Sequence record: PQ516281 | Length of the DNA: 64,000 nucleotides | Strand: one strand, 5' to 3' | From: Escherichia phage vB_EQ1 | Shown here: piece by piece, positions 34,375 to 35,885 of the stretch | How positions within the stretch are numbered: position 1 is the stretch's first letter | Layout of the letters: each line of letters starts with the position of its first letter | The notes under the pieces: model-generated | Database searches by the model: none | The model's input: the letters and a program-made list of their open reading frames with translations, nothing else | What the model was told of the DNA's origin: nothing | Translations under genes and position numbers: made by a program

Positions 34375-34794
34375 TTATGCGAAAGCAGCTGGGCTATATT
34401 TTTTAATTTGGAATTCAGGAACTACCATGAACTGTCCAGCGAAAACGATGTTATAAAGCTTAACACCATCTTCTACCCAACGGTCGCTAATAAATCCGGC
34501 GATTTGCTTAGTTTTCCACGGTGTTCCATCAGTTGCCGCAGCAATAGTGAATTCATGGTCTTTTTCAACAGAAACTGATCTGCATAGTCCCCATTTGAAC
34601 GCTTTTTCTTCTGGTTCAATGAATTGGCTTTTAACGTAACCAATGTTACCATCGGCGTCACGAACTTTAACTTCGTTACGACCAAAAACCGGATCACTCA
34701 CAGAAAGAACTTCAACCAACTTCCCGGCAACTTTAGAGCGAGAAGCAACAGATACATATACGTAATCACCTGTAGAGAGATTTACAATATTCAT
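34375..34794 (-). CDS. hypothetical protein, member 1 of tandem paralog triplet
   Basis: 139 aa; C-terminal motif FISDRWVEDGVKLYNIVFAGQFMVVP shared with next two genes. Confidence 0.65.
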   Translation of the reverse strand: MNIVNLSTGDYVYVSVASRSKVAGKLVEVLSVSDPVFGRNEVKVRDADGNIGYVKSQFIEPEEKAFKWGLCRSVSVEKDHEFTIAAATDGTPWKTKQIAGFISDRWVEDGVKLYNIVFAGQFMVVPEFQIKKYSPAAFA

Positions 34795-34803
34795 AATAAT
34801 TCC

Positions 34804-35268
34804 TTAAGCTTTACGAGGAGACACATAGCGAGTGATTTCAGATTCTTTAACAACTCGGAAGTCACCTAAGAATACGATATTGTATAACTTTTCACCATCT
34901 TCAACCCATTGGTCACTAATGAAGCCACACATAATATCAGTTTTGTTTGGATAACCGTATTCATCGATGAAGTCAAATTCTTTATCAGTCTGGAATTCAA
35001 CACCTTTACACAAGGCCCATTTGAACTGTGTAGTAGGCTCAACGATATCGCTTGAAGCAAAGTGGGCACTCACACGAGATTCCAGGAATTTAGGACTTAC
35101 GTAAGCGTACTGAGTATCCTGACGTCCAAAGCTAGGAATGATTCGAACTTTAACTTCTTTAATACGTCCCATGCCATTTGTGCGAAGTCCGACAACTTCA
35201 ACCAGACGACCTGCGGCTTTAGAACGGGATGCAGTTGATACACGCTTAATTTCACCAATAGTAATCAT
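34804..35268 (-). CDS. hypothetical protein, member 2 of tandem paralog triplet
   Basis: ORF track 34804..35331; probable ATG at 35268 (MITIGEIKRVSTASRSKAAG...). Confidence 0.6.
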   Translation of the reverse strand: MITIGEIKRVSTASRSKAAGRLVEVVGLRTNGMGRIKEVKVRIIPSFGRQDTQYAYVSPKFLESRVSAHFASSDIVEPTTQFKWALCKGVEFQTDKEFDFIDEYGYPNKTDIMCGFISDQWVEDGEKLYNIVFLGDFRVVKESEITRYVSPRKA

Positions 35269-35298
35269 AATTTTTCTCTCTTTGTTTAAGTTGAATTC

Positions 35299-35328
35299 AT
35301 TATACTCCATCCATCCTTGGATGTACAA
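35299..35328 (-). promoter_or_regulatory. early promoter TTGTAC-N18-TATAAT
   Basis: Upstream of paralog 2; near-duplicate of promoter at 35856..35885. Confidence 0.5.
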
Positions 35329-35330
35329 CA

Positions 35331-35825
35331 TTAATTTAGAATATTAACCACAGCACTACGTGGAACTACACTAAAATCACCTGCATGAACAACGTTCAGA
35401 AGTTCAACACCGTCTTCAATCCACTGATCAGTTACCCATCCACTCACTGGACCTGCGAACGGACGTCGAATTGAAACAGCTTTACACAACAAATCAGTAG
35501 GCTCAATAGGCTTAATCAGAGTACCGTACATACAAGCGATATCCATATCAATACAGATGTCTTTAACGGGTTCTACTTCTTCAATCAACAGTTCAAAGTC
35601 GGTGCTTGGAAGGGCGGTAGTAGAAATTGTACCATATGAATTTTTAATTTCTAAGAATAACCAAGGGCCTTCAGCTTGTTTGATGAAGTTAACAATAGTG
35701 AAACTATTACCTTGAGTGGCACCTAAAATTTCACAAAACTTTTCATAAGCTCGCACTGAAGCACCGTACCAGTTAATTTGTTTTTCATCTTTCAGGATGT
35801 AAGTAGCCGTAGTATTGATATTCAT
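35331..35825 (-). CDS. hypothetical protein, member 3 of tandem paralog triplet
   Basis: ORF track 35331..35867; probable ATG at 35825 (MNINTTATYIL...). Confidence 0.6.
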   Translation of the reverse strand: MNINTTATYILKDEKQINWYGASVRAYEKFCEILGATQGNSFTIVNFIKQAEGPWLFLEIKNSYGTISTTALPSTDFELLIEEVEPVKDICIDMDIACMYGTLIKPIEPTDLLCKAVSIRRPFAGPVSGWVTDQWIEDGVELLNVVHAGDFSVVPRSAVVNILN

Positions 35826-35855
35826 AATGTTTTCCAGTTTGGTTAAGATAGAAAG

Positions 35856-35885
35856 ATTATACTCCAACCATCCTTGGTTGTAAAC
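35856..35885 (-). promoter_or_regulatory. early promoter GTTTAC-N18-TATAAT
   Basis: Upstream of paralog 3; contains CCAAGGATGG palindrome. Confidence 0.55.

Follow-up and report, generated by a model that had tools for sequence, protein, structure and literature searches.

The motB.1-motB-motB' early genes of an RB69-like Escherichia phage

The early protein MotB of phage T4 is a toxic, non-specific DNA binder that doubles the burst size and is copurified with the host nucleoid proteins H-NS and StpA (PMC6070864). It binds modified as well as unmodified DNA, its overexpression up-regulates H-NS-repressed host genes, and a role in host takeover has been proposed (PMC6070864, PMC7827196). A second T4 protein, MotB.1, was reported to have an LSm-like fold (PMC12152347). 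As described by Patterson-West, Son, Hinton et al. in 2021, the C-terminal domain is common to MotB and MotB.1, and their N-terminal domains are different; in RB69 there are two motB genes, one motB.1 gene and one gene for a peptide of 29 amino acids (aa), and some phages have extra copies (PMC7827196). Here we analyse the corresponding genes of Escherichia phage vB_EQ1, three adjacent open reading frames (ORFs A, B and C) on the minus strand of a 64,000-nucleotide stretch of sequence record PQ516281 (the window).

The three ORFs are best read as the motB.1, motB and motB' early genes of a Mosigvirus (an RB69-like T-even phage), situated between dexA and motB.2. We assign this reading, which includes the proposed expression and a T4-MotB-like mechanism, a probability of about 0.9. 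The identity of the genes, their paralogy, domain architecture, promoter sequences and purifying selection are observed directly. The gene family, its common C-terminal domain and the number of copies of the RB69 type have been in the literature since 2021, and many GenBank records label the genes of the cluster "MotB-like transcriptional regulator"; in this respect the identification adds little.

A more distant parallel is provided by LUZ24 gp4 (PMC8501957) and other phage proteins acting on H-NS, where a small early protein is also proposed to relieve or alter H-NS-DNA complexes. However, LUZ24 gp4 has no sequence relation to MotB, and MotB itself binds DNA; its contact with H-NS may be indirect.

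Gene identities and the shared C-terminal domain

The genes of the cluster are as follows.

35331-35825, minus strand: ORF A, motB.1 in its intact 164-aa form, starting at the ATG downstream of promoter P1
34804-35268, minus strand: ORF B, ortholog of motB, 154 aa, starting at ATG-ATT, 32 nucleotides (nt) past the -10 hexamer
34375-34794, minus strand: ORF C, a diverged second motB (motB'), 139 aa, with the same two-domain layout as ORF B

A longer version of ORF B (175 aa) was rejected: it would start inside the promoter, its extension is not conserved, and several relatives have an in-frame stop five codons upstream of the 154-aa ATG.

An earlier note on this DNA, made from the sequence alone, had pointed to a C-terminal motif common to the three ORFs, to be abandoned if alignment gave it no statistical support. 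The motif is present in all of them, as WVTDQWIEDGVELLNVVHAGDFSVV in A, FISDQWVEDGEKLYNIVFLGDFRVV in B and FISDRWVEDGVKLYNIVFAGQFMVV in C, and alignment upholds it. The BLASTP E-values are 2e-10 for A and B (over 36 aa), 2e-11 for A and C, and 3e-32 for B and C, the latter at 43% identity over the full length. All three proteins exceed the curated gathering threshold (25 bits) of Pfam family PF17613, "motB" ("Modifier of transcription"), with 36.1 bits for A, 130.6 bits for B (E 6.6e-38) and 77.2 bits for C (E 1.7e-21). In ORF A only the C-terminal part is matched.

Alignment of the domains on their own extends the shared region to approximately 60-75 aa, beyond the reach of BLAST. The region begins with (F/D)(K/L)..LCK.V and is the most conserved part of the proteins, with invariant D, W, E, G, L, N, V and G; the MotB-type domain has an insertion of about 17-20 aa. 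The domain boundaries set by this alignment are

35334-35513, minus strand: C-terminal domain of ORF A, residues 105-164
34807-35031, minus strand: C-terminal domain of ORF B, residues 80-154
34378-34608, minus strand: C-terminal domain of ORF C, residues 63-139

By sequence comparison, B and C are full-length paralogs, and A has the C-terminal domain alone in common with them. ORFs B and C belong with the T4 MotB orthologs, Category 1 of PMC7827196, and are similar to T4 MotB (NP_049626) along their entire length, including the KOW-like N-terminus (VS..SRSK.AG.LVEV ... EVKVR) that ORF A lacks: ORF B is 47% identical to it over 155 columns (E 5e-43), and ORF C 39% (E 2e-26). They also share with it the two-domain layout, an early promoter and the genome neighbourhood (dexA ... 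cef). The differences are that Mosigvirus has two copies, that the biochemistry is known for the T4 protein, and that ORF C is shorter, with some 13 aa of the linker and some of the N-terminal hairpin missing, and is close to neutral instead of basic.

ORF A has the MotB.1-type N-terminus and the C-terminal domain DPTDLLCKAV...GWVTDQWIEDGVELLNVVH of the MotB.1 family (Category 2 of PMC7827196), in whose alignment PTDLL and GWV.DQW.E.G.ELLNVVH are invariant. It aligns over the full length with the intact 143-aa form of T4 MotB.1 (NP_049627; phrog_2333), both domains being alike (47% identity, E 2e-47), and matches phrog_2333 with residues 1-164 (E 7.1e-83). Unlike the T4 protein, it contains a 20-aa linker insertion at residues 83-102, which includes DMDIACMYGTL.

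The notion of three paralogs thus holds for the full lengths of B and C and does not hold for A as an equivalent member. Homology between the N-terminal parts of MotB and MotB.1 was rejected at the sequence level, as profiles of the N-terminal domains gave an hhalign probability of 0.3%. Full-length profiles of A and B were aligned by hhalign end to end, but we discount this match because the hybrid proteins P0058 and P0075 were part of both underlying alignments. The hybrids, found for example in Enterobacter phage ZX14, join the KOW-like N-terminus of MotB to the linker and C-terminal domain of the MotB.1 type and demonstrate domain shuffling in the family. In database searches the C-terminal domain was observed behind at least four N-terminal architectures, among them the KOW-like type of MotB, the MotB.1 type, forms of about 180 and about 250 aa, and the hybrids.

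The profile of the domain, compared with 1.84 billion representative proteins, retrieved only about 25 clusters of its own family. The domain occurs in T-even-like enterobacterial phages and nowhere else. A few long Ig-repeat and tail-fibre repeat proteins scored with E-values of 1e-6 to 6e-4, but these short repeated matches look spurious and were set aside. MotB-type genes were found by tblastn in 761 phage records, with one copy in approximately 554 and two in approximately 207. A second copy of the ORF C type (at least 80% identity) occurs in approximately 207 of the 761 records, some Tequatroviruses among them.

The window DNA is 100% identical to that of Escherichia phage MRostami-2023e and 95-98% identical to many Mosigvirus genomes. 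The neighbours of the cluster are

35891-36568, minus strand: dexA, matching the Pfam Rv2179c-like exonuclease family and flanking the cluster on one side
33791-34315, minus strand: motB.2 (phrog_1106), whose product is 34% identical to T4 MotB.2

Despite its name, motB.2 is not a paralog of motB, as it has no Pfam match and no tblastn match to A, B or C; tblastn of the 64-kb window revealed no copy beyond these three. The gene order of RB69 (dexA, motB.1, motB, MotB-like, motB.2, cef) is that of the window, with RB69p010 97% identical to ORF C, RB69p011 87% identical to ORF B, and RB69p013 93% identical to ORF A over the aligned part. The order in T4 is dexA, motB.2, motB.1, motB, cef; positions 33791-35885 of the window (dexA-motB.1-motB-motB'-motB.2) differ in this from positions 1654-3225 of NC_000866.4 (dexA-motB.2-motB.1-motB). 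A scan of IMG/VR for further loci yielded three only, and therefore GenBank Mosigvirus records were used for comparison. Rfam models applied to positions 33400-36700 gave sub-threshold matches within coding sequence, rejected as chance; a search of NCBIfam gave no match.

Predicted early promoters and the cassette upstream of motB.2

Early promoters of the T4 type are intergenic sites with a TTTACA-like -35 box, a 17-nt spacer and TATAAT, upstream of a gene with a Shine-Dalgarno sequence. Two such sites, predicted to be T4-type early (sigma-70) promoters, are the top-scoring promoter-like sites of the region.

35856-35884, minus strand: P1, sigma-70-type early promoter upstream of motB.1, TTTACA-17 nt-TATAAT, 11 of 12 consensus positions
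35299-35327, minus strand: P2, early promoter upstream of motB, TGTACA-17 nt-TATAAT, 4 nt past the motB.1 stop codon, 10 of 12 consensus positions

Both are retained in all ten Mosigviruses compared. As the earlier note had observed, two of the ORFs are preceded by near-identical promoter and leader sequences with TATAAT. The two regions align over 64 nt with 76.6% identity (E 3e-7), the distance between the -10 hexamer and the ATG is the same, and the 22-mer CCAAGGATGGNTGGAGTATAAT occurs in the window exactly twice, at P1 and P2, with zero occurrences expected. The palindrome CCAAGGATGG that had also been reported there is not palindromic, and the folds of the P1 and P2 regions are no more stable than those of shuffled sequence (z -1.55 for P1 and -0.41 for P2).

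ORF C is not preceded by a promoter of its own. Its Shine-Dalgarno sequence AAGGA lies in the 9-nt gap following the stop codon of ORF B, and the junction of the two genes is identical in 10 of 10 Mosigvirus genomes. Thus B and C probably form one transcription unit, with ORF C co-transcribed from P2. The host sigma-70 RNA polymerase would initiate at both promoters, producing a motB.1 mRNA from P1 and a bicistronic motB-motB' mRNA from P2, the latter running into the promoter/stem-loop cassette before motB.2. In T4, a promoter-like site TTTACA-17-TATAAT occupies the place equivalent to P2 after motB.1. On the other hand, T4 motB.1 directly follows motB.2 and has no promoter of its own, whereas ORF A has P1.

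The cassette at the end of the cluster consists of two overlapping elements.

34320-34364, minus strand: stem-loop closing the cluster, 3' of ORF C; minimum free energy -24.6 kcal/mol, z -6.07, none of 200 shuffled sequences as stable
34342-34369, minus strand: P3, a third early promoter, TTTACT-16-TATTAT, found by the promoter scan; its -10 hexamer is enclosed by the stem-loop

The promoter/stem-loop cassettes of T4-type phages named PeSLs, described by Arbiol, Comeau and Krisch (PMC2839356, PMC4122927), likewise consist of an early promoter and a stable stem-loop, and are repeated in the genome. Judged by its stable fold and repeated copies, the element 34320-34369 is a cassette of the PeSL type. 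The 3' arm of the hairpin covers the Shine-Dalgarno sequence of motB.2, so that the latter would be masked in RNA reading through from upstream and exposed in RNA started within the loop; the hairpin could therefore block translation of motB.2 on the former and not on the latter.

Similar cassettes (GTTTACTTCTCCTCT...TATTATAGACCTATCAA) are seen on the minus strand at about 5004-5049, 47233-47290 and 33731-33798, ahead of other early genes. A cassette of the same type is also present upstream of T4 motB.2, and motB.2 has been relocated jointly with its own promoter and stem-loop between Mosigvirus and T4. The cassette may account for the fact that motB.2 flanks the motB genes on one side in Mosigvirus and on the other in T4.

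P1 itself fits the consensus TTTACW-N17-TAYWAT published for PeSLs of the PST/T4 phage pair. However, unlike PeSLs, neither P1 nor P2 has a significant stem-loop, and both are therefore classed as plain early promoters.

One possibility is that P1 and P2 resemble each other not through duplication of a promoter together with its gene, but because a promoter cassette was placed ahead of two genes in separate copying or recombination events, as has been proposed for PeSLs. We regard this as a serious alternative with somewhat less than even odds. The spacers of P1 and P2, identical in 15 of 17 positions, are the closest pair among 23 early-promoter-like sites of the window; other pairs reach 14 of 17, against a mean of 5.3, and thus families of promoters with shared spacers are a general feature of this genome. 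The clear cassette 3' of the cluster recurs at three other places. The absence of a promoter before T4 motB.1 places P1 on the Mosigvirus side, tied to the rearrangement, and the coding sequences immediately after the two start codons are unrelated. Against independent copying, there is no PeSL-defining stem-loop at P1 or P2, and their likeness continues through the leader to the ATG with equal spacing, as expected if promoter and leader were duplicated locally.

Protein architecture and proposed function

All three products are small proteins of two domains, built mainly of beta strands: the N-terminal barrel is followed by a flexible linker and then by the conserved C-terminal barrel, which is about 60-75 aa long and contains the motif. 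The AlphaFold2 model of ORF B, built from the family alignment, has a mean predicted local distance difference test (pLDDT) score of 85.8; its strands fall within residues 7-57 and 89-148, and the linker is disordered at 66-78. That of ORF A has a mean pLDDT of 80.4, with the N-terminal domain at 8-83, a disordered segment at 86-106 and the C-terminal domain at 116-161. The N-terminal domains of B and C are basic and KOW-like; A has a different one, published as LSm-like.

By homology to T4 MotB, ORF B and probably ORF C would bind DNA without sequence specificity. They would coat DNA alongside the host nucleoid proteins H-NS and StpA, or in competition with them, altering H-NS-dependent repression and raising the burst size approximately two-fold. 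Coating of DNA and disturbance of H-NS/StpA are the most likely function of B and C; by analogy, the activity of T4 MotB is assigned to B and, with less confidence, to C. The suggestion that the family serves host takeover is in line with this, as that role has been proposed for the toxic DNA-binding T4 ortholog of ORF B.

Several points weigh against this reading of the cluster. Firstly, the experiments on MotB come from T4, to whose protein the Mosigvirus ones are only 39-47% identical. Secondly, ORF C is near neutral (isoelectric point (pI) 6.6) and may bind DNA less. Thirdly, MotB.1 has no known phenotype (PMC12152347). Finally, the promoters and the co-transcription are predictions from sequence.

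The N-terminal domain of ORF B is very basic (pI 11, net charge +8), and the shared domain is acidic in A and B (net charge -2 and -4, respectively); thus, judging from charge alone, the KOW-like N-terminal domain is more likely to contact DNA than the C-terminal one. The published HHpred assignment of the latter is a cold-shock-type OB-fold (PMC7827196). A PDB sequence search with ORF B found no relative, and the top 60 matches in the search with either model name no OB-fold protein of the aIF5A or cold-shock type. As the tool does not tell which domain was aligned, the C-terminal fold is taken to be either SH3/Tudor-like or OB. Together, the charge distribution and the fold searches point away from the shared domain as the part that binds DNA.

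A role in docking or oligomerisation is conceivable for this domain, which would link different nucleic-acid-binding N-terminal barrels (LSm-like in A, KOW-like in the other two) to one partner, perhaps H-NS/StpA or the paralogs. This we consider possible, though on the whole unlikely. It would suit the acidity of the domain, set against the basic N-terminus of B, together with the pI of 4.5 of the whole ORF A protein, and also the occurrence of the domain behind at least four architectures, including the hybrids, and its conservation with eight invariant residue positions. However, the cold-shock-type OB-fold assigned in the literature is nucleic-acid-binding, and in ORF C the domain is slightly basic (net charge +1). 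Still more tentative is the specific proposal that the C-terminal barrel is a Tudor/SH3-like docking or oligomerisation module rather than an OB-fold DNA binder, that the N-terminal nucleic-acid-binding barrels are interchangeable, and that MotB, MotB' and MotB.1 jointly address a single host target, for example H-NS/StpA filaments.

Selection and frameshifted copies of motB.1

We return to the reading of the cluster as long-established motB.1, motB and motB' genes. Between the paralogs, synonymous sites are saturated: the proportion of differing synonymous sites (pS) is 0.75 for B and C and ranges from 0.75 to 0.83. Hence the duplications are old, and the ratio of nonsynonymous to synonymous substitution rates (dN/dS) between paralogs, proposed in the earlier note as a check, is uninformative. 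Orthologs were used instead, with dN/dS calculated by the Nei-Gojobori method from 10 Mosigvirus genomes (nine for ORF A, as the frameshift-split RB69 copy was left out).

ORF A (motB.1): dN/dS 0.083
ORF B (motB): dN/dS 0.197
ORF C (second motB): dN/dS 0.100
dexA: dN/dS 0.036
dda: dN/dS 0.026
cef: dN/dS 0.037
motB.2: dN/dS 0.115

In blocks of 30 codons the ratio never exceeds 0.36. The orthologs of A, B and C are under purifying selection, somewhat relaxed in ORF B, and not under the diversifying selection that had been suggested. The arrangement of the three genes is fixed in 10 of 10 Mosigviruses, and motB and motB.1 are present in T4 too; of the locally amplified early-gene family proposed earlier, a tandem paralogous early family remains, and recent amplification does not.

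Synonymous change is distributed unevenly along ORF B in the 10 Mosigviruses. The last 35 or so codons (34804-34910) and the junction 34795-34803 show nearly none (dS 0.02), and in codons 1-120 dS is 0.23-0.49, compared to approximately 0.08-0.12 in the neighbourhood. This points to mosaic recombination or to constraint at the nucleotide level.

A recent local amplification under diversifying selection, driven by an anti-defence or host-takeover arms race, is improbable: the tandem layout with a shared domain, the copy number that varies among T-even phages, the several N-terminal domains joined to one type of C-terminal domain, and the dN/dS of ORF B, the top value of the neighbourhood against 0.03 for dexA and dda, would fit it, but synonymous saturation dates the duplications as old, dN/dS stays well below 1 in all genes and blocks, genes and promoters are arranged alike in all ten Mosigviruses, and no anti-defence role is reported in the MotB literature cited.

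The reference sequences of motB.1 in T4 and RB69 contain frameshifts. In the T4 reference NC_000866.4 (the same as AF158101.6), one extra G is present, ATTGGAAG instead of ATTGAAG; the ORF ends at 119 aa, leaving an unannotated 29-aa ORF, EDGVELLNVVHAGEYSVVPRSAVVAILN.

NC_000866.4 2219-2340, minus strand: T4 motB.1 frameshift region, comparable to positions 35334-35455 of the window

An uninterrupted MotB.1 of 143 aa is encoded in 13 further records, from T4 or from phages whose protein is identical, including T4T, KJ477684-6, MT984581, RB55 and RB59, and its sequence (P0011) is found on 256 contigs. The 119-aa version appears to be an artefact of a one-base frameshift, and the protein made by T4 is most likely that of 143 aa with the complete C-terminal domain. 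In RB69 (NC_004928.1, 3377-3873), motB.1 is annotated as a 132-aa ORF and a 29-aa ORF (RB69p012) separated by a frameshift, whereas a single 164-aa ORF is present in the window and in nine other Mosigviruses. The published 29-aa "Category 3" peptide of RB69 is the detached C-terminus of MotB.1.

In the 2025 study of MotB.1, the plasmids came from a gene-synthesis company, the T4 sequences were cited to NC_000866.4, and the protein was given as 13.8 kDa (PMC12152347). This mass corresponds to the truncated form. Recognition of this apparent frameshift error could help those who work on T4 early proteins; the published constructs were synthesised from the reference. If the shared domain is a docking module, the negative results for T4 MotB.1 would be uninformative about it, because the construct followed the frameshifted reference and most of the domain was missing. 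If this domain is not the part that binds DNA, mutagenesis of the MotB family should be redirected.

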